Origin: Rhynchopus sp. YZ270_cl-10
Taxonomy: Eukaryota
DNA length: 64,000 nucleotides
Reading direction: 5' to 3'
Assembly (NCBI GenBank): GCA_964035575.1
Contig: OZ037837.1
Coordinates: 1,240,001 to 1,304,000, forward strand
Below are positions 9,790 through 41,665 of this stretch, one piece after another. The notes beneath the pieces were generated by a model. It worked only from the letters and a program-made list of their open reading frames with translations. It did no database searches and was not told where the DNA came from. The translations under genes and the position numbers were made by a program. Numbering within the stretch: position 1 is the stretch's first letter; the number at the start of each line of letters is the position of its first letter.

Positions 9790-9922
9790 CACAGTATACA
9801 CAGTATACACAGTATACACAGTATACACAGTATACACAGTATACACAGTATACACAGTATACACAGTATACACAGTATACACAGTATACACAGTATACAC
9901 AGTATACACAGTATACACAGTG
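9790..9922 (-). repeat. 9-bp satellite (CACAGTATA)n, reverse complement of the 6348-7129 array, about 14 copies
   Basis: Direct reading. Confidence 0.97.
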
Positions 9923-12393: not shown

Positions 12394-12563
12394 CCCAGTA
12401 CCCAGTACCCAGTACCCAGTACCCAGTACCCAGTACCCAGTACCCAGTACCCAGTACCCAGTACCCAGTACCCAGTACCCAGTACCCAGTACCCAGTACC
12501 CAGTACCCAGTACCCAGTACCCAGTACCCAGTACCCAGTACCCAGTACCCAGTACCCAGTACC

Positions 12564-15257: not shown

Positions 15258-17427
15258 AGGAGGCTTCCCCCCACAAAACAGGGCCACGTGAGATAGACGC
15301 GGTGTAGTGTTTCTCGTCCCTGCACCGAAGTAGACAGACTCGTGTTGCTTTTATGATACGCCGTTCCTCGAACACCGTCAGAATCGTGTGTCTCCCCACA
15401 ACGGCACGCTTGTGGTTTGAGGTGATTGTTTGCTGTGTGTTTGTTGGGAAAGGAAAGGAGGCGCCGATGATGGCAGACGCAGCTGCACCCACCTGAATGG
15501 GGTCAGAAGTCCGTCCCGTTGCAAGACACTGAGTACAGTAGGTTGTCCGCAACAGCAACGATCTTTCAAACTGAAACGTCCCCCCTTGCACGACAGTGAC
15601 GTCCTCAACGTGCATCGTCATGAGCTCTCTGCGGACGTTGTCTCCTTTGCGGAGCTGTTGTACGAATGCCACTGCAAAGTGTTGCTTGAGTCGCAGGGGG
15701 CGGGGCTGACAACACATGACCACGAGAAGATGCCTGAGGGGATGACGACCGCACTGTGGAGGTCGAAGCAGACCCTTCATGGTTGCAAGGCTATCTCCCG
15801 AAGACGTATCTGCTGAGGAACGTTGTGTGTCTCCCGAGAAGTGTTCTCAGAAACACTGATGGTTTCCCCATCCAAAAGTAGTGGCGAAGACGATCATGTT
15901 TCCAGCCATCCTAGCCTCAGTATCATAGCAAAGCACGAGGCCGTTTTGTACGTCCTGTGCCGTGTCTCAGCAGAGGCTTCTCCGCTTTGACTGGGCTTAT
16001 CAACGACACGCTTTGCGTCTTTGTGGTGGAAGGCTTTCTGTGCTCTGCACGGCAGTTCTTTTCGTGCGCATTGCTTGCAACAGCTAATTGGGGAAGGGAT
16101 GGCGGTCGTCTTTGTTAGGGTGAGACCACGCCTCACTGCCCACTGCTACAATGCTGTTTTTGGTTGGGAGGCAACTACCTGGTCTCACATCGAGGTGGAG
16201 ACTGGGAGGCTGTTGCGTCATGATATGGGGTGTGGTGCGCTGCTTCGGCATTGGTGCGTTGTGTCCGTAATGTGTATCTCTGGGAGTGCGGACGTGGGTT
16301 CAGCGGTGGCATGTTGTGCAGTCCGCATCTGTTTCAGTGATGCGTGTGAACACGGCCTGCGTCTGATTCCCCCACTTGGCGGAAGTGTCGCAGAACTGTG
16401 AGAAATATGGTTCTCTGATATTTGAGGATAAGGTTCACGGTTTGGGTTCCGTCTTGTGTCCTTCAGATATTATGGCAAAGACAACTGAACACGAGAGGCT
16501 TAGGTTCATCTCATCAAATTTACTATTTTCCGGTCAAAGGCCTCGTCATCGTCAGACGCTAGTGACGAGCGGTAAGGGTGACTTGAGTGACATCGATCAT
16601 TGTATTGAGCTTGTTTCATAGTGGTTCACTATTTGACACACAGTTGGGCATCTTTTGTGTGGTCCTGGGGTGGACCTCACAATGCACCACCGGGGTACGT
16701 TCCTCCAGAAACTCTATGAAGGTGTTGACCGCTCGAGCCGATGTCTCCTACCTGAGAGATTGCACTCCCTTTCACTTTGTGTTTGGAGAACTGTTGTTTC
16801 CTATTTAACACACAGTTGCGGCCGGTTGGAGCACTGTTGCTTGCATCCTATTTAACTCACGTTGGCAGTGAGCGCAGATGCAGACTATTTTGAAGCACAG
16901 TTGATACTCTTATGCGTCTTATTTAACACCCCGCAAATATTCGTTTCCTTCCCCATGTTTTTTCACTTCCCAGAGTACTCAAACAACACCCCCCAAAGGA
17001 GAAGCGTCGCGCCCCTCCGAGCCACACAGCAACCTACGTCCAGCATGAGCTTCTCTAGCTTTATGGGTCCACAGAAGCAGCAGCCTGTGGATTCCTGCAC
17101 TGGAACGTCGGGCCTACCCTTCTGAGAAGGGATGATGGCCGTTACAGCAAGAACGGAGGTTTTGTGACATACGCGCGAAGTAGGGCGAAGCAGTGAGGCG
17201 CGAGGTTCGACGTGTGCAGGTGACTGCGAGCTCAGAGGCACATGCAAAGCTGTACGTAGCAGCACAGTGTTGTTCTCCACGCATGACGTGGGACGGTGTT
17301 ATTGGCTGTGCCCGTCTCGAGCGGTGCACTGTTGCAGTTTTGCGTGCTTCTGGGATGTGGATTGAGAAGCATGCACACACACACACCCTCCACACACCAC
17401 ACACCTTGCAGGAAGCAACACACCACC

Positions 17428-20400
17428 ATGTTCGGCCCACATGAGCAGGTGCAAGCATACGCAAAGCAGCACAGCATCCTGAAGCTGGTCGACGAGCTTG
17501 TGAACGAGCTGCTTCAGCATAAGCCGTGCGACCCGTTGGCGCACCTGGCGTGCTACATCGACGGCCTGCGTGGGGCAGCGCCTGCGACGGACGTGGAGAA
17601 GAACAAGCTTGCGGCAGAAGGCAGCACTGCGGCGTGCGCAGAGGTGTCGCACACCTCGAGCACATCATCATCGCTCGAAGCGGCGCTGGGGACACTCTGG
17701 GACGCGTGCAGACCCAACCACGCGACGTTCAAGGAGCGTTTCGAGAAGGACGTTTCGCAGGGCCTTCGAGATGTGCTTGCGACAGTCTTCGCGAAGGCCG
17801 GGAAGGCGAAGGGGCAGGCCGGGAAGGGACAGGAGGCAAAGGACACACCTGTGCAGACACAACTGAAGTTCGACGCCTCAGCAGACGTGACGCAAGCAAA
17901 TGCGGGACAAAGTGTGCAGCTGGTGGACCCCTACAGCGCCGAGTACAGACCCACGCAGAGTGTGTCGGAGGTGGTCGACGGGCTTGCAGACTGGTTCGGA
18001 CCTGGACGGAAGCTGTGGCCGCGGAGTGCTGTGGACAGGGTGAAGCACAACTGCACCTTCATGCAGCACAAGCACAACTACGGGGAGGTGGCGGAGGTGG
18101 TGGTGCCGCTCTTCATCTACTCGATTGCGGTCATGAAGGAGTACACGTGGGCCTTCTGGGTGGCCTCGGATGGGCGCGGACGGTGGACGCCGTTCTCGTC
18201 GGTGCACGCAGTTGTGCTGGAGAAGGACTTCCTTGCGCACTGCACGAAGGACGGGGCACCCCTGTGTGGGGAGGACGAAGACCTGACACGTCCACGGGGG
18301 CTGCCGCTCGCACCACTGAACGGCACCATCACAGAGGCAAGGCGTGCGCTTGCAAGGGTTGCGGAGGACACGAAGGGTGCGGGCACCACCCCCAGCAGGC
18401 AGCCGGCTCGTGCCGCCTTCGAGCTGCCCACGCAGATGCAGGTGGTGTTCTGCGACGGGCGCATGGTGGGCGGCAGCAGCAGCGAGGGGGACGAACGGGG
18501 GCGTGGCTTTGCAGGGAAGGTTGGTGGGGTGTTTGCGGGCTGGGAGGGGCTCACGGTCTTTGTGAGCACGCCCTTCCTTGAGGGTTGCAAATGTCGTGAT
18601 GAGGTCACCAGCACCACCACCACGAACACGACCAAGGACGTGGCAAAGGAGTTCTACATAGCACGGTACAAACTGGCAGATGTGAGGGCAGAGTACGAGG
18701 CTGCTTTGCGTGCAAACACGCAAAGCACGGCGGATGCGGAGACACTCGCGAGCCTGAAGAAACGTGTTGCGCTGCACCCGTACTCGGACTCGGTTGCGTG
18801 GCTTCCGGCCCCGTCCTGCATCTTTGAAGGCCTCCACACTGCGACGGCGGACGTGCAGCGCACACAGACGATGTCTGTGTCTCTCGCACGACTGCCCCCA
18901 CCCGGTGTGCTGGAGTACTTGCAAAGCAGACGCACCTGTGAGCACCTTGAGATTGCCGAGGGTGGTCTGCACTATCTGCGTTCGGAGGATGCGTTTGCGT
19001 GCCGTGCGCGTGAGGAGAAGGTGCTGCTTGCGGGGAGGAAGGACAAGGTGGCGGGGACAGAGACAGCGTACGTCCGCTGTGACGACAGCTGCTGCTTCTT
19101 CTGTGCGGTGGGTGCGCTGAAGGACCGTTGCGTGCGCGAGAAGAACCAGCAGCAGTACGACAAAGGCTGCAAGGAAGACCTCGACGCACTGAGTACCGAG
19201 CACAAACAAGACTACAGCCCGTTCCAAGCGCTCGTGGCACACAAGGTCGCCATCGCCGTGCGTGAGGCCCCCGAAGGCCAGGCACCGACGCCGCTGACGA
19301 TCCTCCACGCTCTCGACATCCAGGCCGTGTACTGGTCCTCGGCAGGCGTGGCAGACTGGACACACGTCAAACAACCCCTGCACGCTTCGCTGTCTGGGAA
19401 GAACAAGTTCATTGCCGTACCTGGAGCAGACGTGCCACCGTGTGTGCTGTACAAATCCTGCTGCGAGTTCGCGAAGCAGCCGTACTACGTCTTGAACGCG
19501 TCGATGCGTGATGCGCAGAACAAGGCACACAAGACGCAGATCACAGTGACGCGCAAGGACAAGACGAGCGAGGTCTTCTGTGCACGCAGCGTCGCGTCGC
19601 TTGGGAAGGGTATGGGCACGCTCCGGGAGGTGGCACGCAAGCACGCGACCCTGAGGACCTGCCTCAGAGACCTGATGAAGCTGTCGCACCAGACGTGCTT
19701 CGAATCCGAGACGAGCGGGACGTCGGTCTGGTACACGTCACGCGACATCATCGAGGATAAGAAGAAGGACGACACCCTGCCGCGAAGCGACGAGGACTAC
19801 CTGAACCCTGTGCACCACAGCGGGCTTGGCTACTACCGGTACACGGCACGGTACGACAAGGAGGCACCGGAGTACATAGAACCAAGCACGATGAAGGTGC
19901 AAATGGGGGACTGGGTGTCGGGGCAGGTGCGGCCGCTGCTGTTCTACGTGAACGAGGCAATGAAGGAGATGTCGCCTGTGCTGTCGTACCGGGGGTGGCG
20001 GTGTGCGCCGGAGACAGAGCAGAAGTGCTACCGCGGGCTTGGGAACGCACGCCTGCCCCCTGAGCTCTACGCAACGGGGAACGTGGTGGTGTGGTCTGCG
20101 TTCTCGTCGACGTCGACGGACCAGGGCATCTCGCAGTTCTACGCCAGCTCCGCGAGCGGGATGACGGCGTCGGTCTTCATTGTGACAGGGTCGTCTTGCA
20201 GGCTGATCGCACCCTGGAGCAGGTTCGGCCGTGAAGAGGAGTGGCTGTTCCCACTGAACTCAATGTTCAAGGTGGACTCGATGCTGACGGAGGACCAGCA
20301 GTCGATTCTCGGGAAGAAAGACTTCCAGCTCTTCGAGATCTCTGAGGTCGACGAGCTGTCGATGGAGAAGATCCGCATCCGCTGCTCCCTGGCAAGCGCA

Positions 20401-23400
20401 CAGACGAAGGAGGTCGCGCGTGTGGTCTTCTCAGCAGTGTCTGCAGTGGACTCTGGGAACGGTGTTCTCGACCTTTCCCTGAAGAGCGCAAGCGAAGGCT
20501 GTGTGGATGCGAAGTGGGTGTACACAGTTGTAGTGAACTTCGACGCACTCCAGCTGTCGCCTGTGATGACAAGCAACAGCACGAAGCTTTGCACTGGCAA
20601 CGTGGCCGACAGCTGGAACAGTTTCCTGTCCGATGCCCACAAGCTGAATCGCTTCACCCACGAGCACCCCTGTGTGATCTTTGACAAGTCCTCGGAGGAG
20701 GGGCGGCAGGTGCTCAACGCAGTGTCTTTGGTTCTCGGCCTGCGCCACTCGAAAGCGCTCACGTTTGTTGAGGTGACGTGCCACCTGAAGCCCTCGAAGG
20801 CGAAGGACGCCCGCAGCCTGCAGGAGGAAGAGAACGCAAGCTCGGGCTACTACCAGCTGAAGGCGATGAACCCGACGGAGCAGTGGGAGGTGAGCATCGA
20901 GATGCGGCGTGAGGATGGCCAGGAAGGGCTTGCTTTTCTCGATGCAGGTGCTGTGCTGCTGCACAAGATCATCGCGAAGCAGGTGCACCTGGTGAGGGTT
21001 GACATCCGCAACAACGGTGTCGGTGTCGAGGGTGCGGAGCTCCTTCTGCAGGCGCTGCGTGTCAACAGGCATGTTGTGCAGCTCAGCATCTGCGACACTG
21101 AGCAGCAAAACCAAAACCAAAAGCAAAAGCAAAGACCTCTGCAGGTGCGTGACACACACACATGCGACGCAGAGGACGGGGACGATCCACACCTGGGGGA
21201 GGTTGCGGCACAGCGCATGATGCACATCCAGCAGGTCATCAACATCAGGTGTGCGCACAACAGAGGCACCCTTGTGTCAAGCACGTTCTCCGACCTGGGT
21301 GACACCTGGCCGCAGTGCGCCACGGAAGCGCTGTACGACGTGGACGTGGTGGATATGGCCTTCTCGGACCTGTTCGACACCCGCCAGCGTGAGGCTGTTC
21401 TCTTCATCGAACTCCTGCAGAAGGCGGTTGACGCACAGCACCACTCAGCACAACAGGAACTTGCTTCGAACAGGACGTACCCAAAGCTCCCCGGCGCGCT
21501 TGTTGCTGCTGCGCGTTGGTGCGACGCGTCGGTGATGACGTTGCTTCTGGACATGCAATGCGACGCCTGCGAGACGGACGCGTTTGGCGAAACACCACAA
21601 CTGAAGATGTCGCGCCGTCAAAACAGAGGCACAGAGAACTATCTTGATGCCTGTGATCGCTCGCAAGACCTGGCGCAGCGCCTTCACGTGTGTCTGGACA
21701 GGCTCCAGCCTGCAGTGCTCCGGTACGACGAGCCGCTGTGGAAGGTGAAGAACTTTGCGCTGGAGGTGATGCGGATGGCAGACGACCGTGAACACATCTC
21801 TCTCGCAGCTGAGCTGATCCGCAACGTGCGTGCCCGCTACGAAGCCTTCTTTGGGAACGAGCCTGCTGCGCTGTGCGCATCTGAGTACGCCGTGCACGTG
21901 GAGCGCATGATGCACGACATCATGGAAGTGTGCAAGACGTGCTCCGTCCTGGCTGTGCTGCAGTGCCCTCTCCGCCGTCAGGAAGCAAGCCTCTTCTGTC
22001 TCAAGGTGCTTTGCTCGCGTGGGAACGAGCTCTTTCCCCTTGTGGATGCAACAGACGAGATGCGTGCAATGACCGATATGCGCAGCACAGGGCGCAGGAA
22101 GTGTCAAGGTGCCGCTGGGTACCAGAGTTGCGCAAAATTGTGCAATCCGAGAAATCAGTTCAGACAGGAGCAGTGGTCTGCTCTTGCTGAGGAGGAGGAG
22201 CTTCCACGCAGAATGGACAAGAACGGAATCCGCTACTTCGAGCACGAAGTTGCTTTGCAGGACACGGAACCATGGTCAGATATGCAAGAGGCAGACGTGT
22301 GCAGCACGAAGCGCAGAATGTACGAAGGCAGCTACGTTACAAAGCAGCAGTATCTGGACACGGTGTGGAGCACAGCCGAGGAGGAGCCGAAGCAGATACG
22401 CAGGCAGAACGCTGACGGCTACTTTGTCTTCAAACACGACTGGGATGAAGCCGTGGAGGGCGGTGCGTGGGAGGACGGGAAGAAGGAGACACTGCCGACG
22501 CTTGTGGAGCAGTTGCGGCAGCCCTCTCTCAACCTGTACGACCCAACGGTGTTTGGGAGCCGCATTGAAACGGAGGAGAGCAGGGCCCAGCTGCACACGT
22601 GGTCGAGGCTGTGGGGTGCTGTGAACGCTGTGCTGGTGACAAGCACGGAGAAGGAGCGGGTGCTCTTCCGCAAGGTGGAGAATGTGGCGGACACTGTGCT
22701 GATCCACCACCTCCACCTGAAGCGTGGTGAGCTGTACTGCCAGCCCGACATCACTCTCTGGGATGTGGAGCGCCGCTACAGAAACCGTGCTGTGAAGCAC
22801 GAGAAGGACAGCAGAAGCGAGACACAGGAAGCAAGGACGAAGGTGGACTTCACGTCTGACTTCAACGACAACTCAGGAAGACTCTGGAAGGCGTCAGAGC
22901 GCAGATGGACAGGGAGGGGTGGCGAGGAGGCTGCGTATGAAGGCGAGCTTTGCTACGAACATGAGTTCAAAGACAAATGCATGCAGGCACACAAGCAGGC
23001 ACGCAAGGAGAGAGGGGAGGACGTGGGGTTTGATCTGAACACGTTACTCAGATGGGAAGATGCGAAGCCTGAGGACCCTTTCCTGACACACGTCCCTGGC
23101 GAGCAAGTTGAGGTGGAGACACGCAAGAAGAGCAGCAGCACCATGACAACGATTCTCTTCAGCGCGCACGGGAAGATGCACGGCGAGTGTGTGGGGCTGC
23201 TGAGCGACGGACACGACTTCCTCCTCCCTGCGCTTGAGATGTTTGTTGTGGAGGATGTTCAGGCACGTGGCACGTGCCTCCATGTCAGCCTCATCTCACG
23301 TGGCTCGCTGCTGCGCACGGACAAAGAGCTCCGTGCCTGGTGCTCTGGCATACAGCGGACTGGCCTGTCTTCTGTTTGGGGCAAGAACGGTGCTGCGGAT

Positions 23401-25645
23401 GAGTGTTTGCGTCCTGAGAACAAGACAGCAAAGGACGATACATTGGACAGGCAGAGCTTCGTGCGCACAGACGAGTGTGACGTGTTCTTCAGCCGTGAGT
23501 CTCAGATGCTCCACGGAACGGAACGGGAGGCAATGTTGCACGATCTGATGGACACTGTCAGACCTGTGAATGACAGCGCATCTTTCAAGATGCAGGGTGC
23601 AAAGGGACAGGTGAGGAACCATGGTGCGTGCACCCTGCCGGAGGCTGTGCCCAGTACGTACCGCCCAGGGAAGACGTTTTTGAGTGGGTTGAACCGCAAG
23701 AAGCGTCCTGAAGGGGATCACACTGCAGAAGGCATGCCAAGACCACACGGTGACGAACTCCCAAACATCCCGCACGTGGAACTCGCGGAGGATTGGGAGA
23801 AGGATATAGATGTGAACGATGTGGTCACTGTTTCGGGAGCATCCATCCAGGCCTACCACGACGAGCACACAGACGAAGACGCGTTCTTCAAGACGATAGT
23901 CAAGCATGCGCGTGACACACCTGAGGAGTGCCCCCCGCCTGTGAGCGATGTGTACGGAAGGAAGGAGTTCCGCATCACTGTCGGGGAGGTGCAGCAGCTG
24001 CTGAAGACAACCACGATAGTCACGTCGCCGTCCCTCCCACTGCGTTTTGTGCAGTGTCTGATCGGCTCGTTCACGTCTGCGAAACAGCGTCTGCTGTTCT
24101 TCAGAGTATTCCGTGCAACGTCGTTGCTCAGCATCGGCAATAAAAAAGATTGGGAACGTGCGAAACGGATTATCAGAGATGCTGTGCAAAGTTTTGTTGC
24201 AAGGGACGAACAAGGCCTAGACTCTGCACGTCGTGACCTGGATGCACGTGGCGATACGAGAAGCTACTACATCCATCTGCTTCTCCTCAGCCTTACTAGA
24301 CAACAACTTGAGTATCTGGACGGCAACCTTGATGACGACGGTGCAGAGCCTATTGAAGTCACCCGTGACAAGTTCACATCGTGGATGGCCACCGTACAGG
24401 CGGAACCTGCACACTACGGCTTCACCTCAAAGGAACATGCGAGACAGACGTTGGCGAAGTCGCTGGTCGAACTGAGCACAGAAATGTGCGTCTCGCAGCA
24501 GGGCTTCTCCTTCACCTCCGGCACGGACGGTGAGCACAGCCAGCTCTGTGAGAAGACGCACCACAGCATCGCCATCCTTGTGGCCACTGGGATGAACTTC
24601 TGTGACCGAAGACCCACCCTGCGTGAGGCACCAAAGTACTTCGTGAGAACAGCACGTGAAGGAACAAAGGCACACGAGGGCTGGACCTACTTCCAAGAAG
24701 GGAAGGAACGTGAATTTGTGGACCGTCTGAAGGTGCTGTACACATGCATCTTCGAATCTGCAAGGAAACAGCGTGTGCGGAACATGTGTGCCATCCCTGT
24801 GTATCTTGCTACTTATTCTGCTCGCCTTGGGTTTGAGCTGAAACTTGAAGTTGCAGAAATGTACTTGCGTGCGCAGTTCGAACTCCTTGCAGAACAGGAT
24901 TGGGGTTTTGAAAACGTATGCATGCTCTTTGTCTTGCTTTGTCTCACTTCTTGCTCTTTCATGTATGCGATACTGTCCTCCCCTCCTGCAACTAAGAAGG
25001 AGGACAGTCAAGCTGTCTGAATGGCGGCCACACTAAAGCAACAGATTATCAAGAACAAGAAAACAACAGCAGCAGAAAACCAAAACCCCATCTTTGTTTC
25101 AAAGACTTTATTGTGTTCCTCTTTCACATTACCTTTAAATCACTGCACAACAGTACTGGTTGAGGGCTCAGGATGACACCGATATGGCACGCCGCATCTT
25201 GAAGAAAGGACTGCACGAGTGTGGCGACTACAACAACGAGGCACAGGGGTTGTATTTGAGGTGCAACATCGTTTTGCACAAGAAAGACGCGAAGTTTCTT
25301 GCAGTACGCCTCGCGCAGCTGAAGAAATCACCTTCGCTTTTGTCCCCATCTGAATCGCCGGCACTGCTGCAGGGACAGCACGGCATGTTTTGGGAGGAAG
25401 CGAGGGATACCTGGTACACGGACGGAGCAGACTGGGCGGCCACATCGACAGGTGCGCTGATGAACTACAACATTTCGAAGAAGGCACTTAACCTCGACTT
25501 TTCTGCATTGAACAGCACCAGCTCCGTTGCCGATGAAGGTGATGAAGACTTCGCTGCAGTTGGAAGACGGATGAATCGGCCGTTGCGGGCTTCGCGTTGC
25601 AGTGGAGGAGACGATAGCGCAGCTGCACTGAACGGACGTGGCTAG
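17428..25645 (+). CDS. Giant multidomain protein: RIIa/Dpy-30-like docking helix, R-S-E ADP-ribosyltransferase, RI-type LRR, ankyrin-like segment, degenerate second ART-like region, macrodomain-like C-terminus; predicted intron 24916-25153
   Basis: 7.5-kb open frame from ATG 17428 (YAKQHSILKLVDELVNELLQHKPCDPLAHL); ART motifs CYRG (~20026), FSSTS (~20101), REEEWLF (~20230); IRNNGVGVEGAELLLQAL; GTATGC..ACAG phase-0 intron joins in frame to ORF 25154-25645. Confidence 0.82.
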
Positions 25646-26538: not shown

Positions 26539-27066
26539 ATGATGACCACTGCGGTGAGTGTCTTGGTGTTGCTGTCTTGCAATGTCCTGTGTTCTGCACA
26601 GGAGGTTGCGCATAACAGCACCGCCGTACCTGCCAGGGTGACCGCGGGGGGAGGAGGCGGGGGAGGGACCGATATTGTCTTCGTCCTTGTGGTGGCGTCG
26701 CTGTGTGGGGTGTGCAGTTTGGTGTTCGGGATTGGGATGGGCTTGGTGATCAGAAGGAGGAAAGAGGCGAGGGATCAGAGACGTGCCACCGCTGTTCAAA
26801 ACGCTGAGGTCTTTGTTGCAAGCGCTGACAGCACAGAGGAGGACATCCCGCTTGACACATACTCAGAACAGTTTGAAGTCTGCTCGGAGCTCTCGCATTT
26901 CGAGCTCGAAGGGGAGGCAGCCCACCCTCAGCACGCAATGGTGTCGTTAGATGCGATTCTCCAGAGCACGTCTCTCCACTCGATGACAAGGAAGCCAATC
27001 CCATTTCATGCTATCGACATGGATTGCGATGGGAGAGAGGTGTTTGGATCGGAGATAGTTGTGTAG
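26539..27066 (+). CDS. Small type-I membrane protein, 175 aa, unknown function
   Basis: Signal-like MMTTAVSVLVLLSCNVLCSA, NST sequon, Gly linker, hydrophobic IVFVLVVASLCGVCSLVFGIGMGLVI followed by RRRK, acidic tail. Confidence 0.75.
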   Translation: MMTTAVSVLVLLSCNVLCSAQEVAHNSTAVPARVTAGGGGGGGTDIVFVLVVASLCGVCSLVFGIGMGLVIRRRKEARDQRRATAVQNAEVFVASADSTEEDIPLDTYSEQFEVCSELSHFELEGEAAHPQHAMVSLDAILQSTSLHSMTRKPIPFHAIDMDCDGREVFGSEIVV

Positions 27067-32100: not shown

Positions 32101-33192
32101 GGATGTACGTTTCGAGCAGCGCAGCGCAGAGAAATGAAATATCATTTTTTTTTTTTTTAAATGCCACTTTTCCATTTTTTTTCCAATTCCATTTTCCCCA
32201 CCCCAATTATTATTTACTTCCCCTTTTTTTGTTGTTCTGTTTCAGCGTCTATTTTCTTTTGACGATGAAAAAAAAAGTGAAGTGCAAGAAACGAAAAAAT
32301 ACAATTGTATTTTTGTGGACTTTCTTTAAGCAATACAAAGCCCCTAATGTCCCCATATATTTCGCGACAATTTTCTGTGCTCGGGTCCCTTTCGAAAATA
32401 GCCGTACCCTCGGTATTAGATGCAGGTTATTCCTAACTCTGGAGCCTTTTTGCCGAAATTTCAGGGGCTCCGCTACCGTATAAAGTTCTGTTGCGGCGCA
32501 ACAGAAGTCTAAAAAAAAGAAAAAAAAAAAAAAAAAAAAATCCCATGGTTGAACCACGGGAGTACCATGGGGAACTGGGTTGCTGACCGCACTATCCAGT
32601 CTGTACCTCAATTTTTTTTTGCCTGCGGCGCCATTTTTCCTTTTTTGCTCCGCAAAAAAGGATTCTATGTGTGACACTGTGTTGTAAAAAAGCTAGATTC
32701 TTACACCGTACCCTACATTTTTTCGCCTGCGGCGCCATTTGTTTGATTTTTTTTGCTCCGCAAAAAAAAAAAAATTACAGTTCCCTATGTTCCCAATGTC
32801 CCTGGTCAGCAGTGCAGAAAAATTTTTGGGCACAAAAACAGCTAGCGCAGGGTGAAAAAAAAAACCCCGCAACAGAACTCAAAAAAAATCTGAAAACGTA
32901 GCGGAGGGGCTGCGAAATTTTGAAAAAAAAAAAAAAAAAAAGTCGAGCCTTGGGCTAAGTTGAACAAAAAAAAAAAAAAGAAGGATTATATTTTGTGCAA
33001 CCAAATATCAGCCTTTTTGTTTTCGGCTAGCCAACTCTGCAACCGCTTAACGAAATCATACGGTATGATTTCCATGCGATACAAATCGTTAACATGACAC
33101 TTTAAAGAATTTATAATTTCTCGCCTTGAGACTCTACGACCTGGCGGTGGGCCCGTCTGCGATCGATCTCATGCGCCTTGATGTGTCTCTAC

Positions 33193-33241
<49 letters not shown>

Positions 33242-33558
33242 CTAGGTGGTAGAGACTAGCCAAACCCACCTTCCCCCCCCCCCCCCCCCCCTCCCCCCCT
33301 GAGAAAAAAAGCCCCCCCCCCCCCCACCCTTGCCTCTTTGTCTCGGTTGGGGTGCTTCCCGCCCCTTCCGGCTCTCCGCATGCCATCTTCTTCGTCCTGC
33401 CATGGCACTGGGTCTGCCTGGATGAGAACTACTTACCTGGCTGTGCCGTCACGACACTGTTTCTGACGGAGAGAACGTCTGGACTGGGCCTCTGGGTGTC
33501 TACCTCTACTGCTAAACATTAAGTAATCTATTCGGACTACCTCTACTGCTACTACTGA

Positions 33559-34188
33559 CCACTCTTGCACTAGGTCTGCCTGAGTGAGCATCTGGTTTAG
33601 ATCACTGGATGACTACTGCTACTGCTACTGCTACAATAACCACTCTTGCACTAGGTCTGCCTGAGTGAGCCTGGTTTAGATCACCGGATGACTACTGCTA
33701 CTGCTACTGCTACAATAACCACTCTTGCACTAGGTCTGCCTGAGTGAGCCTGGTTTAGATCACCGGATGACTACTGCTACTGCTACTGCTACAATAACCA
33801 CTCTTGCACTAGGTCTGCCTGAGTGAGCCTGGTTTAGATCACCGGATGACTACTGCTACTGCTACTGCTACTGCTACTACTAACCACTCTTGCACGAGGT
33901 CTGCCTGAGTGAGCCTGGTTTAGATCACCGGATGACTACTGCTACTGCTACTGCTACTGCTACAATAACCACTCTTGCACAAGGTCTGCCTGAGTGAGCC
34001 TGGTTTAGATCACCGGATGACTACTGCTACTACTTCTGCTACTACTTCTTCTACTACTTCTGCTACTACTTCTGCTACTGCTAGAATACTGCTATTGCTA
34101 CATCTAACTCCTCTGCACTAGGTCTACCTGGTTGAGTGCGACTTGTGATTGCTAAACCGTTCACGACACGTGATCTGCCTGGATGAGA
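33559..34188 (+). repeat. ~80-bp tandem repeat (about 6-7 visible copies) in the 5' region of the retrotransposon
   Basis: Unit CCACTCTTGCACTAGGTCTGCCTGAGTGAGCCTGGTTTAGATCACCGGATGA(CTACTG)nCTACAATAA starting at 33559, 33640, 33719, 33798, 33884, 33969. Confidence 0.93.
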
Positions 34189-34388
34189 NNNNNNNNNNNN
34201 NNNNNNNNNNNNNNNNNNNNNNNNNNNNNNNNNNNNNNNNNNNNNNNNNNNNNNNNNNNNNNNNNNNNNNNNNNNNNNNNNNNNNNNNNNNNNNNNNNNN
34301 NNNNNNNNNNNNNNNNNNNNNNNNNNNNNNNNNNNNNNNNNNNNNNNNNNNNNNNNNNNNNNNNNNNNNNNNNNNNNNNNNNNNNNNN
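34189..34388. other. Assembly gap, 200 N
   Basis: N run. Confidence 1.
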
Positions 34389-34395
34389 TCACACC

Positions 34396-35853
34396 ATGGA
34401 TACCCTGCGTCTGGTGATGAGTGAGATGGACGTCCTGCGCCAGTGCGCTGTCGACAAGACGCCTCCTCCACCTTCCTTCTCCACTGCTGTCTCCGCGCAG
34501 CTCAACGACGCCTACGACTTGGTTGTCAGGTCCGAGCACGCGCCTGACGACTCCCACGTGCGCTCCGTGGCCGCTTGTGTGGTGTGCGAGATAGTCGCTG
34601 CCAGGCCTGCGTCATCCCCCGCGCCCTCCATCGCTGCCATCCTGCGCATCACTGCTGTTGTGACTAAGTACAACCTGGTGCACCTCGCAGAGCTTCCGGC
34701 GGTCCTTCCTACCCCCGCTTCGTTGTCGACGGACGGCTTGCAGGACGGTGACATTGGCCTTGTCCTCGCGACCCTGGCTGCCATTGCCAAGACTGCCGCT
34801 GCCGCCCCTGCCACCACTACTAATGCTTCGTCCTCCTCCCGCGCCCCGCGGAAGACGATCAACATCGTCCAGCGACTGCGTGAACTGGGGTTGGAGAACC
34901 TGCCGGAGCTTCTTCTCCCCAGCCAGGACCTCGTGCGGGCCATCCAGCTCAAGCGCGAGGACGGGTGCAAGCTCCCCCTGCAGCTGGACCCCAAGGGTAA
35001 GATTTTGTTCCCCCCCAATGCCGCACACTCTGTTTCTTTCGTCCCTTCTTCTCTAGACTTGAACGAGCAAGTGGTAGATGCGGCGGGGCTCGCCTACACG
35101 GTTGAGGGGGTACGTGAGGCCAAGCAAGCACTCCTCCTTCAGACTTCGGCGAAGTTGAAGAATGAAGTCCTCCCCCCTCTGCTACACTCTCTTGTCCGCG
35201 CCAGGCACGCGATAGCCTTAATCGTCTGCGAGGCGGTGGCACCACGCGACTACCTACGTCTCCTCCTCCTAGTCACCTCCATTATGCCTATTGTAGCGAC
35301 ACATGCTATGCTCCAGAACCGGGGGACGCGGGCTTGGGTCTCCACCACCTACGAGTCGTGGATTTTCCAGCGAGTCCACGAGTCTTCGGCGGAGACCACC
35401 GTTTCTGATGCGCTCTCTCTTCTTCAGAAGCTAGACGTAGATAAGATTCGGCATCTCGACTTGTCCGGCTCCGGTATCGTCGAGAGCTCTGCTGGTGAGG
35501 AGTACTCAGGTGGTGGCTACACAGGTGGTGGCAACACAGGTGGTGGCAACACAGGTGGTGGCAACACAGGTAGTGGCAACACAGGTAGTGGCAACACAGG
35601 TAGTGGCAACACAGGTGGTGGGAACTCAGGTGGTGGGAGGTCAGGCCGTGCACGCCGTACCCGACCGGCCCCCTCCTATTCCCCGTACGAGCCGCCGCTC
35701 CAGCATCCTGCCCCGTATGCGCCGCCGGCTTTCGAGGTCATCAGGCCCTCCGACGCGAAGGGGCGGAAGGGGAGCAAAGGGGACAAAGGTGACAAAGGCA
35801 CGCCTAAGACCCAAGGGAGACATGCGAAGGGGAAGGGCAAACGCCAAGAATGA
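34396..35853 (+). CDS. Gag-like ORF1 of the YR retrotransposon
   Basis: First ORF of the element; GGGNT/GSGNT 15-nt repeats and basic KGRKGSKGDKGDKG tail; start could lie in the gap. Confidence 0.7.
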   Translation: MDTLRLVMSEMDVLRQCAVDKTPPPPSFSTAVSAQLNDAYDLVVRSEHAPDDSHVRSVAACVVCEIVAARPASSPAPSIAAILRITAVVTKYNLVHLAELPAVLPTPASLSTDGLQDGDIGLVLATLAAIAKTAAAAPATTTNASSSSRAPRKTINIVQRLRELGLENLPELLLPSQDLVRAIQLKREDGCKLPLQLDPKGKILFPPNAAHSVSFVPSSLDLNEQVVDAAGLAYTVEGVREAKQALLLQTSAKLKNEVLPPLLHSLVRARHAIALIVCEAVAPRDYLRLLLLVTSIMPIVATHAMLQNRGTRAWVSTTYESWIFQRVHESSAETTVSDALSLLQKLDVDKIRHLDLSGSGIVESSAGEEYSGGGYTGGGNTGGGNTGGGNTGSGNTGSGNTGSGNTGGGNSGGGRSGRARRTRPAPSYSPYEPPLQHPAPYAPPAFEVIRPSDAKGRKGSKGDKGDKGTPKTQGRHAKGKGKRQE

Positions 35854-38040
35854 CTGCCCCTCGCATCTCCTCTCCCTACACCCGCTTCCATTTACACGCC
35901 CCTCCCTCCGCCCGATAGCCTCCTGCATAAGGTCTGGCTCCGATCTGACGCACTCCTTCCCGAGCGCACTCCCGATCCCGATCTTGATGAACCCATCGCT
36001 ACTAATATCCCACCCCGCCTCTCACATACTTTCCTGAAGCAAAAAGGGCTCTACGCCACTGTAGAAGCCTCTTCCTTTGAAGACCACCTGAGATGCGTCT
36101 CTTCTCTCGTCATCGACCCGGTGACCCTCCCTGACCTTGATTCCGATTTGGTGGCGTGCTGTGCATCTTACGCATCGCGAACCGCGCCGCAGAACAGGGC
36201 TTTTCGGAAGGACCGGATCAGTTATTGGGAGTCCAGGGGTTCTTCTCTTCGCGCCAATATACCTCTCTTCAATTCCTACTTCGATCCCTCCCATCCCGCC
36301 AAGGACATTGCGATGCGGATAAACGTCCCTCTCGTCGAAGAGCTTCTCCTTGCGATGGGTGCCGCCGCTCCGGGGGTACAGAATGAGTTCGTCAAGCGTC
36401 TGGGCTTCGGCTTCCCTGTTGTTGATGACCTCTCTGAGGTGGGTGTCTTCGACCCTAAGCTCAGCCGCAGTACGAAGAAGGTTGTGATCTCGTCGAAGTC
36501 CCTTCTTGTCACCCATGAGGCTAGCGTACTTCATTCTCTGCGTCGGCGTTGCGTTGAAGATGGTGACCTTCACGAGATTAGCTCACAGCTTTCTGCGGAA
36601 GTCGACAAAGGCTGGCTGGAGGGTCCATACACTCCTGAGTCCCTCCCCGTCGACTCCTTCATCCCCATCCGTCGCTTCATCGTGGCGCAAGGACAGAAGC
36701 GACGTGGGTGCGATAATGCGCGACCGACGAACAAGGGCACACGCATCCACACACCTATTTCCCTGTGCGGAGTGGACAATGCTGTGGCCACGGCGCTGTG
36801 CTTGCAGTCGCATGGTGTCCCCAAGCTTGCTATGGCTGTTCTCGATCAGAGCGATGCCTACAAGTCGCTGATCGTTGACGCCACGCAACGCCGCTACGCT
36901 GTGATTGTCGCGGTGGACCCCGTCTCACTCCAATTGCAGTGTTTTCTGAGCAACGTCCTCTGCTTTGGGACTGAGAGCGCGGTTCTGGACTACAACGTGC
37001 TCTCACGCTTCGTGGTTTGCACCGCTCGCAGACAGTTGGGCATCCCTACATCAGGATATTTCGATGATTTCCTCCTAATGGGCAGCGAGGACGACGCTGA
37101 GTCGATGGCGGACGACTTCCAACACCTCTTCTCGAACGTCATCGGCCTTGTCTTCAGGGACGCCAAAAAGCGTGTAGGTTCGTTGTTGAAGTACCTAGGC
37201 GTCTGTATTGACTTGTCGGCCCCCCCCCTGATTACCTGTCGCATAGCTGATGACCGACAGTGCTCCCTGATTGCGAAGATTGAGTCCATCCTGTCCGCCA
37301 ATTCCCTCTCCTCCACCGATGCTGCAAAACTGCTAGGTCAACTATCGTTTGTCCAGCAGAATATGTGTGGTGCCGTGGGTAGAGCATATCTTCACCCTTT
37401 GTATTCGAGACAGTACTCTAAGTCTCACTTTTTAGTTCTTGGAGCCCGCCTGGAGGGGGCTCTTGTGTGGTGGTTACACGCGCTCAAGCGCTCTACGTTT
37501 TTCAGAATAATTGACCCTCGTTTTATTTCCTCTCCATGTTCACCCCTTTGTGTTTACACGGATGCCTCCTTGGGCTTGTTGGGTGTTTGTATTTTGTACA
37601 AGCAATACCGTTACTATGGCGGCTGCTTGTCAGCCCTGACACATCGAGAGGAGGCGAACATCCAATTATACGAAACGGAGGCCGTACTCTCGGCACAATG
37701 TTTCTGTAACCATTTCTTCTCCTCCCTTTTCCCCTCCCTCGACCTCCCTTACCAGCAAATTCCCCAAGTGTTTTTCGTTGATAATGAGTGTGCTCAAGTG
37801 ACCCTTGTAAAAGGGTACGCTAAACGCATTGTTATTAATGCTATGGTCCGATCCTTCTGGTCTGAGTCGGTCTCATCTGGGGCCTCTCGTGTGTGGCTGG
37901 AGAGGGTTGCTTCTGCAGCTAACATTGCGGATATGCCGTCGCGAAGTCTGGGTCGCATTCAGTGGCTAGAGGAACGTGGCTTCCGTTACCTTAAGAACTT
38001 TGAGAGCGTTTTCGCTTCGAGAGAGTTCCACGAATGGTAA
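35854..38040 (+). CDS. Reverse transcriptase - RNase H (pol), in frame with gag
   Basis: KRRGCDN, LDQSDAY, LCFG, GYFDDF, KYLG; RNase H VYTDAS, LYETE, FVDN, NIADMPSR; frame is open from the gag TGA onward. Confidence 0.93.
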   Translation: MPLASPLPTPASIYTPLPPPDSLLHKVWLRSDALLPERTPDPDLDEPIATNIPPRLSHTFLKQKGLYATVEASSFEDHLRCVSSLVIDPVTLPDLDSDLVACCASYASRTAPQNRAFRKDRISYWESRGSSLRANIPLFNSYFDPSHPAKDIAMRINVPLVEELLLAMGAAAPGVQNEFVKRLGFGFPVVDDLSEVGVFDPKLSRSTKKVVISSKSLLVTHEASVLHSLRRRCVEDGDLHEISSQLSAEVDKGWLEGPYTPESLPVDSFIPIRRFIVAQGQKRRGCDNARPTNKGTRIHTPISLCGVDNAVATALCLQSHGVPKLAMAVLDQSDAYKSLIVDATQRRYAVIVAVDPVSLQLQCFLSNVLCFGTESAVLDYNVLSRFVVCTARRQLGIPTSGYFDDFLLMGSEDDAESMADDFQHLFSNVIGLVFRDAKKRVGSLLKYLGVCIDLSAPPLITCRIADDRQCSLIAKIESILSANSLSSTDAAKLLGQLSFVQQNMCGAVGRAYLHPLYSRQYSKSHFLVLGARLEGALVWWLHALKRSTFFRIIDPRFISSPCSPLCVYTDASLGLLGVCILYKQYRYYGGCLSALTHREEANIQLYETEAVLSAQCFCNHFFSSLFPSLDLPYQQIPQVFFVDNECAQVTLVKGYAKRIVINAMVRSFWSESVSSGASRVWLERVASAANIADMPSRSLGRIQWLEERGFRYLKNFESVFASREFHEW

Positions 38041-38616
38041 TTCTCCTTCGGACCCACCCCCTTCCCTCCCTTTTGTGTTTCTCCCCTGTCCTATCTACAG
38101 TATATAAAAAAAAAAAAAAAAAAAGCGGCTCACCCTTGCTCACCTGTTCTACCCTCTCATCATTCCTTGGCATCATAGCTATGTCGTTATCGCTCTTCCT
38201 CCTTCTCGATCAACTCCTTGCCTGCGTTGGGATATGAAAGCCAGAGATCTGCGTTGGGGATTTCATTATCTCTGAAGCTTTCTGGATTTCTCAAATTATC
38301 GTAGCAGTTCAGATCTCGAATTTCATCTAAAGAAAGAATTTTAGACGAGATCAAAACTCGCACGATTTTTCCCATCGCAGTTGAGCGATTCAGTAAGCTC
38401 AATCAAACAAAGGTTAAAGAGTTTGGCGTTACGAAAACAAAAGAAGGATTATATTTTGTGCAACCAAATATCAGCCTTTTTGTTTTCGGCTAGCCAACTC
38501 TGCAACCGCTTAACGAAATCATACGGTATGATTTCCATGCGATACAAATCGTTAACATGACACTTTAAAGAATTTATAATTTCTCCCGCCCACCCACTCC
38601 AGAGTTTGCATACACG

Positions 38617-39780
38617 ATGAACTCCGCTAACCTAATCCTTTCGAACATCACGGCGGATCAAGTGGTTACGCGCTTGACAAACGACTTGTGCAACAGTGAC
38701 GCTCGGAGGCGTGAACCCCGGTTAAGCCTCAAGCGTAAGATCGAGGAGATGTGTGCAGGTAGCGTTTCTGATGCTAGAGCTGCGGCTCAGGATGCAGCCC
38801 AACGCCTCATTATCTTCTCGATCTCCCCGGCGTCGTGGTATACCTACTTCACGGCGATACGTGCATGGGGATCATATGCAACAGCACTAGACATCCCTCA
38901 CTTCCCCATTAATCCCGTGGACTTCAGTGGTTTTATCGCCATCCACAAGTGCAAGGCGTACGCTGAGACGAACATCAGTGCACTCCAGAAGGTACACCGC
39001 TACTTGGGTAGTGACTGCAATCTACGGACTGCTGTGGTGTCTGAAACCCTCAGAGGTCTCGCGTCACTGAAGGAGCGCTCTGGCCAGAAGGACCCGATCT
39101 GCTCTCCTCTTCTTGACAAGATGGTCTTGTGCCCAGCCATGCTGTCCCATATAACACGGCAACATTTCCAGTTCCTGTGTGTACTATGTTACGTCTTCCT
39201 CCTCAGGTGCCGAAACGAAGCCATTGACCTCCGAAGAGGTGCGCTCGATGACGCCCCCCACACTGCGCTCAAACGGATCAGGGACTCCCAGACCCACAGT
39301 TCTGTTTTCTGTTTTCAAGGCCAACTTTTCATTGTACTGGCTAAGAGAAAGAACATCAGCACCGGTGAGGTACTGTCACGTGGGTGTACGTGTGCCGGAG
39401 TCGAACAAGCGGGTTGGAGGAAGACCTGTCCGGTCCACATCATCTGGCCCTACATTCGTGATACGGTATCCTGTGGTGAGAAGATTTTCTCGTGCTCCTA
39501 TGTCCACTTTCTTAAGGATGTTAAGAGCAAGGCTTCTGCCCACGAGGATCCCTCCCCAGCCGGTTACGGTACGCACAGCTTTCGTAGAGGCGCAGCCCAA
39601 GATGTGTCCATTGCTAACCCAAATTTAGCGATACTCCTAAAAGCGGGGAGTTGGAACTCTCGATCGTTCAAGGACTACATCTGTTGGAACAAACTGGGAC
39701 AGAGGGCTATGACGGACATCGTCCAGGATCCTAACCTCCACCCTGGCCTGGACAGTAGTGACAGTGAGAGTGAATACTAG
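38617..39780 (+). CDS. Tyrosine recombinase
   Basis: FLLRCRNEA (R), KRKN (K), CPVH, THSFRRGAA (HxxR), GSW, FKDY (Y). Confidence 0.95.
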   Translation: MNSANLILSNITADQVVTRLTNDLCNSDARRREPRLSLKRKIEEMCAGSVSDARAAAQDAAQRLIIFSISPASWYTYFTAIRAWGSYATALDIPHFPINPVDFSGFIAIHKCKAYAETNISALQKVHRYLGSDCNLRTAVVSETLRGLASLKERSGQKDPICSPLLDKMVLCPAMLSHITRQHFQFLCVLCYVFLLRCRNEAIDLRRGALDDAPHTALKRIRDSQTHSSVFCFQGQLFIVLAKRKNISTGEVLSRGCTCAGVEQAGWRKTCPVHIIWPYIRDTVSCGEKIFSCSYVHFLKDVKSKASAHEDPSPAGYGTHSFRRGAAQDVSIANPNLAILLKAGSWNSRSFKDYICWNKLGQRAMTDIVQDPNLHPGLDSSDSESEY

Positions 39781-40084
39781 GTTTACTGTCCATTATACAT
39801 CAATATGTCAGAGTGATCATTTTGTCAGACTCTTTTACCAACTATGTTATTTCTCTTTGGCTTTTTTTCGCGCCCCACCCTGGGGATTTCATTATCTCTG
39901 AAGCTTTCTGGATTTCTCAAATTATCGTAGCAGTTCAGATCTCGAATTTCATCTAAAGAAAGAATTTTAGACGAGATCAAAACTCGCACGATTTTTCCCA
40001 TCGCAGTTGAGCGATTCAGTAAGCTCAATCAAACAAAGGTTAAAGAGTTTGGCGTTACGAAAACAAAAAAAAAAAAAAAAAAAA

Positions 40085-41665
40085 GACAGGCAAAAAATCA
40101 CGCAAATTTACTGTGATTGTTTTCCGCTCAAAGAGCTGCATTTCCGAGTCAATCCCGGTTTGTGGTGGAGGAAAAACGGAAAAAACAGACAAAATTTCAG
40201 TGACTTAAACAGCCACTATGTGACCTGCAAGAGTTCACCTGGAATTGGCGTGAAATGCACCTGGCATTTCGTGACAAAATCTGAGAAACTTGGAATGAAA
40301 GCTCTTTCTCGATCCATTGTGTGGTGGTGCATGGCCGCTCCTGGTTGGTGGAGTGATTTTGTCTGGTTGATTCCGTTAACGAACGAGCTCACCTGGACCT
40401 CTATCACATGATCCCGATAGGATCCATTGCTTAATTTTTTAGCGGATTTTGGGGGTTCATTTCGGGCGTTCTCAAATGACCCTTTTTTTGTTTGTGTTTT
40501 TGTGTTTTTTTTGTAAGTTTGGGCTTAGGTTCAGCTTACACTTTGTTTAGTGGCAAGGTGACGAAAGCACAGAGAGTCTTGGGTTCATCTTGTAAACCAG
40601 GCTTCGCGCTAACTTTTGGAAAAAAATCTGAAAAATCGTCTTTCGGGACCAAAAAAACGCACCTCAAATAGTTGTGCGTCAGGGGGTGAAAAAACAGTGT
40701 TTTGTGGCATTTCCGAGCCAATCCCGCGTTGTGGTGGGGCATATTCGGGAAAATGGACAAAATTTTAGTGACTTAAATTTTCACAAAATGTGAACCCATA
40801 CTCTTAAACAAGGGGCATTTTCAGGTCTGAAAACCCAAATTCAGATGGAATTGTGGTGTTTTGACTGGGAACAGGTAGCGCCGCAGGCGCACGGTACCCA
40901 ACTTTTGTCTTTTTATTTTTCCCTTTTTTCTGCTTTCTTTTGATTGCACGAGCCGATTGCTCTCCACGGTGGGGTCACATGTGTGCGCAAAAACACTCTA
41001 AAGTACTCTGAACGATGAGATTCCTCTGGTTTTAGTAAGGAAACCCCTGTTTGCAAAAAGTGCGTAAATTTCCTGTGGCTTTCTCCCGCCAAGAGGTCGT
41101 TTTGTTGCATTTCCGAACCAATCCCGGATTGTGGTGGGGGATGTACGGAAAAATGGACAAAAATGCAGCGACTTAAAATTTGACAAAACATGAGCCCATA
41201 CTCGTAAACAAGGGTTATTTTCAGGTCTGAAAACCCAACGTACTGAAGAAGCTATCGGTAACGTAGTGATGGCGGTGGGGTTTCAGTGACCACAGAGAAG
41301 AGTGAGAAAACCCAGGACGGTTATGGCCTCGGAGGGGGTGTGCCCCATGGCGTCCTAATCAATCTTTATCCGTGAGGGAGGGGGGATCATCCTCAGGGGG
41401 GATGTGGAGTCGTACTCAAAATAAAATGAACTGTACATAAGTACATCGTGTTTAAACATAAAGGAGGGTAGGAACAGGTAGCGCCGCAGGCGCACGGTAC
41501 CCAACTTTTTTCTTTTTTTCTTTTCCCTCTTCTCTGCTTTCTTTTGATCGCGCGAGCCGATTGCTCTCCACGGTGGGGTCACATGTGTGTGTGAAAACAC
41601 TCTAAAGTACCCTTACTATGAAATATGAGATTCTCTGGTTTTCTTAAGGAAACCCCGGTTTGCAA
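40085..41665. repeat. Diverged tandem-like duplications of a repeat module
   Basis: GCATTTCCGA..CAATCCCG..TTGTGGTGG..GGAAAA..GACAAAA at ~40138, 40707, 41107; GGAACAGGTAGCGCCGCAGGCGCACGGTACCCAAC plus ~150 bp at ~40868 and 41471. Confidence 0.8.

Follow-up and report, generated by a model that had tools for sequence, protein, structure and literature searches.

In the replication model for split-repeat tyrosine recombinase (YR) retrotransposons, a single RNA spans the element from A1 to B2, and the internal B1-A2 copy is the template from which the joined ends are rebuilt. Integration and expression of these elements are largely untested. In nematode-form Pat1 and in Kangaroo, the internal repeats lie between the methyltransferase (MT) and the YR (Szitenberg 2014, PMC4157794; the PAT layout used here is taken from the text of that paper, as far as it was accessible). 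In the nematode form, represented by Panagrellus redivivus PAT and by elements of C. briggsae and P. pacificus, they separate pol from a YR in the same orientation.

An element with this placement of the internal repeats was found in a window of 64,000 nt, the whole stretch of DNA analysed here. The preliminary description had given its order as A1-gag-pol-B1-A2-YR-B2, a design possibly representing a new lineage. Exact repeats and ORF positions confirm the order, with the link from A1 to gag crossing an unbridged gap. The layout is not unprecedented – according to the accessible text of PMC4157794 it is standard in a described family, nematode-form Pat1, and Kangaroo also places internal repeats before the YR. 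The layout itself is already known and is no discovery. The element is an MT-less, split-repeat member of the order DIRS that likely copies itself through RNA, inserts into host A-runs by a 4-A core at its junction, expresses Pol by TGA readthrough and expresses the YR from a spliced message.

Structure and coding content of the element

Self-comparison of the window, together with its ORFs, gives the order A1-leader-gag-pol-B1-A2-YR-B2. All features described below are on the + strand, except a scaffold gap and a junction hairpin, which have no strand. The A repeats are 147 nt long (A1, 32976–33122; A2, 38439–38585) and the B repeats 188 nt (B1, 38255–38442; B2, 39881–40068). The earlier observation that A1 equals A2 and B1 equals B2 holds exactly, over 147 nt (four A's counted) and 188 nt. 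A 4-A core (38439–38442) is shared by B1 and A2. Split direct repeats of the A1-B1-A2-B2 kind, a trait of the split-repeat type within the order DIRS, are present, with the A1 link crossing the unbridged gap; the inverted terminal repeats and internal complementary region of Dirs1-like elements are absent, self-comparison giving only direct repeats at the ends. On the left, the target junction consists of AAC and then a 14-A run (32963–32979), the last 4 A's of which are common to the A repeat. On the right, a 20-A run is followed by GA (40065–40090) and resembles the element's own junction. Both ends lie within A-runs matching the junction core.

The non-coding leader (33123–34188) contains a 79-nt tandem array of about 6 copies (33543–34042) and runs on into a 200-N scaffold gap (34189–34388), which separates the A1 leader from gag within the element and is not bridged. 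This gap was missed in the preliminary description. In a contig from run X3, position 34389 is preceded by 684 nt that are absent from the window. The A2-YR join is bridged, with 31 nt or more to either side of it, by independent public contigs from runs X3, X6 and X7, in two studies. Among the contigs listed, ends fall 5–13 nt short of B1 and reach just 14–23 nt into B2; the pol-B1 and YR-B2 joins therefore rest on the window itself. The YR protein occurs in identical form on three contigs, pol on two plus one, and an 82%-identical pol family on two more. In a word search with the YR protein (2908 candidates of 212–678 aa), the window's own protein was the sole match. The exact repeats and the identical YR protein on three contigs agree with the earlier suggestion of a recent insertion, and the element is an intact split-direct-repeat YR retrotransposon, probably a young one.

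The gag-like ORF (34396–35853, 485 aa) is homologous to protein P0012 of Diplonema papillatum (E 3e-48) and weakly similar to Amoebophrya P0029 (E 3.5e-4). It has no CCHC knuckle – the Gag zinc finger CX2CX4HX4C, a Pat1 trait, is absent from both the window gag and P0012. The pol frame (35854–38040, 728 codons) encodes reverse transcriptase (RT), with DQSDAY at codon 331 and YFDD at codon 402, and RNase H, with YTDAS at 568, YETEA at 606, FVDNE at 641 and NIADMPSR at 690. Pfam matches to the two domains are weak (E 0.018 and 0.18), with the motifs present. Pol stops 31 residues past the last RNase H motif, and there is no ORF between that point and B1. The methyltransferase that follows RNase H in the PAT group was not found: Dam gave no match even with E allowed up to 1, and the motif [DNS]PP[YFW] is absent. 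A search of viral contigs returned no relative.

The YR ORF (38617–39780, 387 aa) encodes a Cre-like tyrosine recombinase. A three-sequence profile matched Cre (E 1e-5), with R197, H320, R323, W346 and Y354 at Cre-equivalent positions, and the protein is 45–46% identical to its D. papillatum homologue. Pfam and PHROGs gave no match for it, and an AlphaFold model built from a four-sequence alignment had a mean pLDDT of 39 and was not relied on. The YR is on the + strand like pol, so the inverted YR of Kangaroo is absent. As first described, the catalytic motifs are intact, in RT and RNase H as well as in the Cre-like recombinase. The combination of RT and RNase H with a tyrosine recombinase in place of a DDE integrase, which defines the order DIRS, is present.

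Expression of Pol and the recombinase

A single in-frame TGA followed by CTG (35851–35856) separates gag from pol and is a candidate readthrough site. The first ATG in pol is only at codon 154, with conserved motifs starting far upstream of it, at codons 28 and 61. In half of the scored related loci (13 of 26), there is an in-frame upstream ORF of at least 300 aa, and all 13 such ORFs end in TGA. C is the next base in 10 of these 13 and CTA follows in 7, but the loci are distant relatives of the window element and are not independent (12 fall in 4 tree clades, and L010 equals L011). By comparison, TGA makes up 48 of 77 other long-ORF stops, with C following in 8 of the 48, and CTA follows 0.56% of all TGA. 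In the window element the TGA is followed by CTG, and there is no folded element 3' of the gag stop (z +0.4). In one relative, P0058, gag-pol is one continuous ORF. On balance, these sequence features favour readthrough of the TGA, with Pol made as part of a Gag-Pol fusion. The literature on UGA readthrough between gag and pol of retrotransposons, in its accessible part, includes the LTR element Tca2; for gag/tyrosine recombinase elements of the order DIRS, no report was found in the non-subscription literature searched. A clade-wide UGA-C readthrough of Pol, part of a speculative scheme given below, is unreported for this order in that literature.

The distance of 31 nt from the end of A2 to the YR ATG is as first described, and the proposed two-cistron design is supported, the YR having its own cistron. 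A stretch rich in pyrimidines (38576–38602; 0.76 across 25 nt) that closes with AG 14 nt before the YR ATG is a candidate splice acceptor, and a 44-T tract followed by AG at 33244–33245 (33195–33245) is a candidate acceptor for the gag message. By pyrimidine score, the AG at 38601–38602 ranks within the top 3.5% of all 3650 AGs in the window, but as an acceptor score this is weak – 21 other AGs within the element equal or exceed it. Protein genes of diplonemids are transcribed as polycistronic RNA and processed by trans-splicing (PMC10161547, accessible text).

The YR message could be cut from a long RNA at the AG preceding its ATG, which in a diplonemid host would happen by spliced-leader trans-splicing; the chances of this reading are about even. 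The preliminary description had instead suggested that A2 may serve as a second promoter, from which the YR would be transcribed separately. Transcription of the element must start at or near A1, and A2, identical to A1, lies close to the YR. Three upstream ATGs with short ORFs lie inside A2 (38528, 38537 and 38557), and in the likely host group, if the host is a diplonemid, genes come from polycistronic RNA. For these reasons an A2 promoter is less likely than the acceptor at 38601–38602, and is on the whole unlikely. Cis-splicing of a leader or gag front piece onto the YR, and possibly onto pol, would give a Gag(N)-YR fusion. Before its ATG, the YR frame stays open as far back as 38569, and two D. 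papillatum gene models (P0005 and P0013) join gag, partial pol and YR via introns. But these models may be ab initio artefacts, no splice donor was identified, and the YR begins with an ATG of its own, which coincides in position with the start of the D. papillatum YR, all of which makes such a fusion doubtful. A transcription start in A2 and later trans-splicing are compatible with each other.

Integration and the origin of the layout

An imperfect inverted repeat spans the B1-A2 junction (38419–38500); its left arm contains the 4-A core, and it is predicted to form a hairpin. It is the strongest predicted fold of 139 windows of 100 nt (z about −6.7), while the two ends of the element show no fold (z +0.4 and −0.4). 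A second small hairpin is predicted in A2 at about 38515–38535. The aligned contigs have no listed variant in 38409–38508; variants and loose ends cluster on either side, and loose contig ends behind the end of B run on into A's (X2, X7). Junction hairpins of relatives are modest (best of 9 windows: L040, z −2.8; L063, z −2.7), and in L015 the best-folding window is mostly upstream of the assumed junction. The asymmetric hairpin would form only where B meets A, and the YR may cross over within its A core, leading to insertion into host A-runs. Integration by YR crossover in the 4-A core of the folded junction is the favoured mechanism, with somewhat better than even chances. The non-subscription literature searched on DIRS junction hairpins and integrons gave no confirmed description for split repeats.

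The nearest relatives named to species are D. papillatum (pol 55%) and Amoebophrya proteins, all unannotated. Among 20 RT relatives looked up, five are named to species – two from Diplonema and three from Amoebophrya. Fused gene models keep the gag-pol-YR order in D. papillatum (P0013) and Amoebophrya (P0029). Further relatives have a YR-gag-pol order and an N-terminal domain resembling, by eye, the cytosine methyltransferase of SymbioDIRS (P0007). Across the supplement files covered (7 of 8, the main supplementary text possibly not among them), the D. papillatum pol has no entry beyond that of a hypothetical protein, and the non-subscription literature searched gave no description of DIRS elements from Diplonema or Amoebophrya. 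A YR profile of the window's group matched none of 73 related loci, and Pfam and PHROGs recognised no recombinase among 44 non-pol ORFs of related loci; a YR-like remnant in L063 was recognised by eye only.

The arrangement could be a composite or an assembly product, with an A-YR-B unit lying beside one of the form A-gag-pol-B, or with the unbridged 200-N gap hiding a join between two copies. Short contigs join the end of A2 (38600–38602) to the 3' end of the YR (39635–39640), showing that there are forms with the structure A-deleted-YR-B, and depth in the A and B bins far exceeds that in the coding bins. However, no target sequence separates B1 from A2, the two sharing exactly the 4-A core, contig depth is similar for gag, pol and YR (X1, X2, X3), host sequence meets both outer ends at A-runs, and the gag-pol-YR order is kept in two other genera; a composite is very unlikely. 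The layout could also have been inherited rather than convergent, if the element were a true PAT, related to nematode-form Pat1, that had lost its methyltransferase and zinc finger. The layout is the same, and an MT-less Pat1-like lineage occurs in C. briggsae (PMC4157794, accessible text). Against this are the lack of both MT and CCHC, the identity of the five species-named RT relatives, and the SymbioDIRS-like methyltransferase domain and YR-gag-pol order of further relatives, and descent from a true PAT is quite improbable. The layout probably arose separately from nematode PAT. A separate protist lineage is likely because the element lacks both a methyltransferase and a Gag zinc finger and its nearest named relatives are Diplonema and Amoebophrya; a new lineage is plausible on a tree that has no named PAT, Ngaro, DIRS or VIPER references.

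The element would copy itself via an RNA running from A1 to B2. Under the established replication model, cargo between A2 and B2, here the YR, leaves replication unaffected, and this neutrality of YR position would explain the recurrence of the layout in nematode Pat1 and Kangaroo. A broader scheme is speculative and rather unlikely as a whole. In it, a separate protist lineage of diplonemids and Amoebophrya relatives would have two interchangeable A...B cassettes, one retro and one recombinase; a circle with two identical hairpin sites would integrate in either order, as the L063 locus hints with its order A-YR-like-B-A-gag-pol-B (the YR-like part recognised by eye), and shed A-YR-B units; the layout would be favoured in trans-splicing hosts (nematodes, euglenozoans, dinoflagellates), the only ones in which a downstream recombinase could be translated; and Pol would be made by clade-wide UGA-C readthrough.

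A young, intact element in several copies, with a close relative in the cultured model D. papillatum, makes direct tests possible. Testable questions include the action of the recombinase on the folded junction, expression behind internal repeats, and Gag-Pol readthrough.

Comparison with described elements

The comparisons below follow the accessible text of the sources cited. Pat1 elements usually carry an MT domain as well as a zinc finger in Gag (PMC4157794); the window element has neither and a protist host. Kangaroo of Volvox carteri shares with it the internal repeats between pol and YR and the lack of a Gag zinc finger, but has an inverted YR and an MT domain, where the element has a co-oriented YR and no MT (PMC4157794). 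Ngaro, for example from Cafeteria burkhardae (PMC8547959) and fungi (PMC3783388), likewise has split direct repeats, gag-RT-RH-YR and no MT. Its internal repeats, however, are downstream of the YR, as A1-[ORFs]-B1A2B2, whereas A2 and B2 flank the YR of the window element.

SymbioDIRS-Dnmt3 elements of Symbiodinium are probable sequence relatives (22–28% pol identity). They share the A-coding-B-A-B repeats, a divergent RT that fits Pfam poorly, and a separate YR ORF with shuffled order (PMC5890265). They differ in that their Pol includes a cytosine methyltransferase and every ORF precedes B1 (PMC5890265), neither of which is true of the window element. SymbioDIRS YRs gave no match to the element's YR profile.

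VIPER, TATE and SIRE of kinetoplastids have split direct repeats and, if the host here is a diplonemid, a trans-splicing euglenozoan host in common with the element, and SIRE is a short A2-B2 derivative like the deleted forms seen here (PMC6681497, PMC12278014). VIPER-like elements differ in that the order is gag-YR-RT/RH, the frames of YR and RT overlap, and all ORFs lie upstream of B1 (PMC6681497, PMC12278014). The window element is a further case in which repeat layout alone is insufficient to classify split-repeat YR elements.

Structure, assembly support and age

The element is a split-repeat tyrosine-recombinase (YR) retrotransposon. Its repeats and ORFs lie in the order A1-gag-pol-B1-A2-YR-B2 given in the preliminary description, all on the plus strand. 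Next to A1 (32976–33122) is a leader without coding sequence, which contains a tract of 44 T's and a tandem array of 79-nt units; then come a 200-N gap (34189–34388), a gag-like ORF (34396–35853), the pol frame (35854–38040), B1 (38255–38442), A2 (38439–38585), a YR ORF of 387 aa (38617–39780), and B2 (39881–40068). A1 and A2 are identical over 147 nt and B1 and B2 over 188 nt, as had been proposed, and self-comparison found no extra copies of A or B elsewhere in the 64-kb window. The catalytic motifs were also correctly described as intact. Pol matches RT and RNase H weakly and carries the expected acidic motifs. The YR ORF has no match in Pfam or PHROGs; a profile of it and its D. papillatum and Amoebophrya homologues matched Cre at E 1e-5, with Cre-equivalent residues at R197, H320-x-x-R323, W346 and Y354.

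Most of the stretch is also present in seven public sequencing runs from three studies. Contig depths, which give no copy number, are similar for gag, pol and YR within runs X1 (354, 363 and 389–397), X2 (410, 390 and 415–427) and X3 (2.8, 2.8 and 2.9–3.5). Contigs of X3, X6 and X7 run across the join of A2 to YR, on which the finding centres; the listed contigs end just before B1 and reach only 14–23 nt into B2. None of the public run contigs bridges the 200-N gap, and one X3 contig carries 684 nt upstream of gag that are missing from the window. The element is therefore probably at least 7.5 kb long, and we infer the link between A1 and gag.

In the coding part upstream of B1, the run contigs differ from the window at two listed sites only, 36395 (K to T) and 37239 (silent). 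An identical YR is found on three contigs, pol on two plus one, and an 82%-identical pol on two more. Split-repeat replication has been modelled as leaving the repeats identical at insertion (PMC6681497). Because the repeats are exact and the copies near-identical, the element is probably young and recently active, in line with the recent insertion first suggested. In the run contigs, depth in the A and B bins (38255–38602, 39635–40068) is tens of times that in the coding bins, and contig joints at 38600–39635, 38602–39640 and 38508–39865 mark short derivatives made of A and B, or solo ends, comparable to the SIRE of VIPER.

Expression of pol and YR

A single TGA, with CTG next, is all that interrupts the common frame of gag and pol. 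Pol has no ATG before codon 154, whereas its conserved motifs begin at codons 28 and 61. Stop contexts were counted at 26 related metagenome loci with enough upstream DNA, and half of these, amounting to only about five lineages, have an in-frame ORF of at least 300 aa ending at the stop before pol (L010, L011, L016, L023, L035, L036, L037, L040, L042, L059, L062, L071, L072). This stop is TGA in 13 of 13, with C next in 10 and CTA next in 7; other long ORFs have TGA at 48 of 77 stops, and TGA-C in 8 of those 48. UGA-C stop contexts are leaky. No fold was found downstream of the window's gag stop. Judged from sequence, a readthrough signal is likely clade-wide in SymbioDIRS-like elements, and the putative signal in the window element is open to testing. 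A gag-UGA-pol junction has been described for the LTR element Tca2; a literature keyword search found none in DIRS. Right behind the pol stop (38041–38124), a stretch rich in pyrimidines and a run of 19 A's form a possible processing signal.

The preliminary description suggested that A2 may be a second promoter. Such a promoter may drive YR, but A2 holds three ATGs upstream of that of YR. A pyrimidine-rich AG at 38601–38602 precedes the YR ATG, and short run contigs without most of YR retain the A2 side up to 38600–38602. In D. papillatum, spliced leaders are reported on essentially all mRNAs (PMC10161547). If the host trans-splices, YR would be released at this AG as a single-gene message. 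The AG is a candidate acceptor and a testable signal; since its score is weak, equalled by those of 21 further AGs of the element, YR may instead be expressed from A2 or by cis-splicing.

The B1-A2 junction and integration

At the internal junction the sequence is AAC-AAAA-GA, with the four A's common to the end of B1 and the start of A2. The left end of the element reads AAC, 14 A's, then A1, and the right end B2, 20 A's, then GA. Neither end has a target duplication beyond this A core, and none is expected of a tyrosine recombinase. Loose contig ends behind B in runs X2 and X7 likewise start with A's.

An imperfect inverted repeat spans the junction (38419–38500), in which a later stretch of A can base-pair with the terminus of B and the beginning of A. 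Folded as single-stranded DNA, the junction scores z -6.1 on one strand and -4.7 on the other, and among 139 windows taken across the element it folds best (z -6.7); the two integrated ends have no fold (z +0.4 and -0.4). The run contigs have no listed variant at 38409–38508, with variants and loose ends numerous to either side. The predicted crossover core lies in one hairpin arm, off centre, a placement closer to integron attC sites than to loxP. In the related loci L040 and L063 this geometry recurs weakly, at z about -2.8 in the best of nine windows, and that of L015 is not clearly like the window's. DIRS-1 cDNA is described as mainly single-stranded (PMC7192593). These features are candidate signals of integration through a hairpin, and they can be tested. 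Within A there is another small hairpin (38515–38535), whose stem is kept, with a different loop, in the loose ends of variant copies.

Relatives, setting and layout

The closest named relatives are hypothetical proteins of D. papillatum (pol 55%, gag E 3e-48, YR 45–46%), and fused gene models of D. papillatum and Amoebophrya have the order gag-pol-YR. A full-library search gave 2542 pol relatives, 150 of them listed; among 20 looked up, those named to species were two Diplonema and three Amoebophrya. A FastTree phylogeny, rooted at the midpoint, was built on 442 columns from the 154 candidates, out of 193, that span the RT-RH core. The window groups there with P0003 and D. papillatum P0004 (support 1.0), and this group falls, together with two Amoebophrya proteins, in a clade supported at 0.87. 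Named sequences of PAT, Ngaro, Dirs1 and VIPER are absent from the tree, which therefore does not place the element among them.

Four long host ORFs in the window are all on the plus strand; unidirectional gene arrays and scattered rRNA pieces are described in D. papillatum (PMC10161547). Some 200 nt beyond the right end of the element lies a eukaryotic SSU rRNA fragment (40273–40400, Rfam E 9e-13), very deep in the run contigs and likely a scattered rDNA piece. The one-way host ORFs, this fragment and the relatives of the element point to a host that is probably diplonemid-like. Large intronless host ORFs (3544–4680, 17371–25020, 58279–63348) include a ubiquitin-LRR protein, whose family has 417 hits; two long host proteins have, by eye, ADP-ribosyltransferase-fold-like segments, one with WD40 repeats. 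An intact 341-aa ORF on the minus strand (8159–9184), Tc1/mariner transposase-like by eye, lies between TATACTGTG-type arrays near 6350–7160 and 9785–9921. There is also a long inverted repeat (11847–13111, arms of 291 and 166 nt, 95–99%), and a 99% direct repeat (14850–15149 and 26666–26965, 11.8 kb apart) flanks a 2549-aa ORF; these are possibly further mobile elements or a duplication.

Layout was scored at 19 of the 73 distant metagenome loci. A YR-like gene is upstream of pol in 8 of the 19 (recognised by motif, not Pfam, with three of the eight in the profile) and downstream in none. L040 has the standard A1-[ORFs]-B1A2...B2 form. L063 holds a decayed element, A-x-B-A-gag-pol-B (317–7701, repeats 92% and 90%), which may be a circularly permuted form of the window's layout; its x region (1663–2262) has a YR-like motif recognised by eye only. 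Downstream of pol in L055 (1–4766) is an ORF 27% identical to the gag-position ORF of L063, representing a tandem copy or another permuted form. L003, L031 and L038 have a long divergent ORF, gag-like by eye, on the opposite strand just upstream of the related pol.

The layout itself is already found in the nematode form of Pat1 (PMC4157794) and so is not new; such a precedent in a described family was one of the two outcomes that the preliminary description had named as refuting its reading. The same source describes a Pat1-like lineage without a methyltransferase in C. briggsae and names homoplasy a strong theme. With this precedent set aside, the element likely represents a protist lineage not described before, in which features are mixed: it departs in at least one structural feature from each of Pat1, Kangaroo, Ngaro, VIPER and Dirs1. 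It shares its layout with nematode Pat1 but is structurally not a member of that group, because it has neither the methyltransferase nor the CCHC zinc knuckle of Gag.
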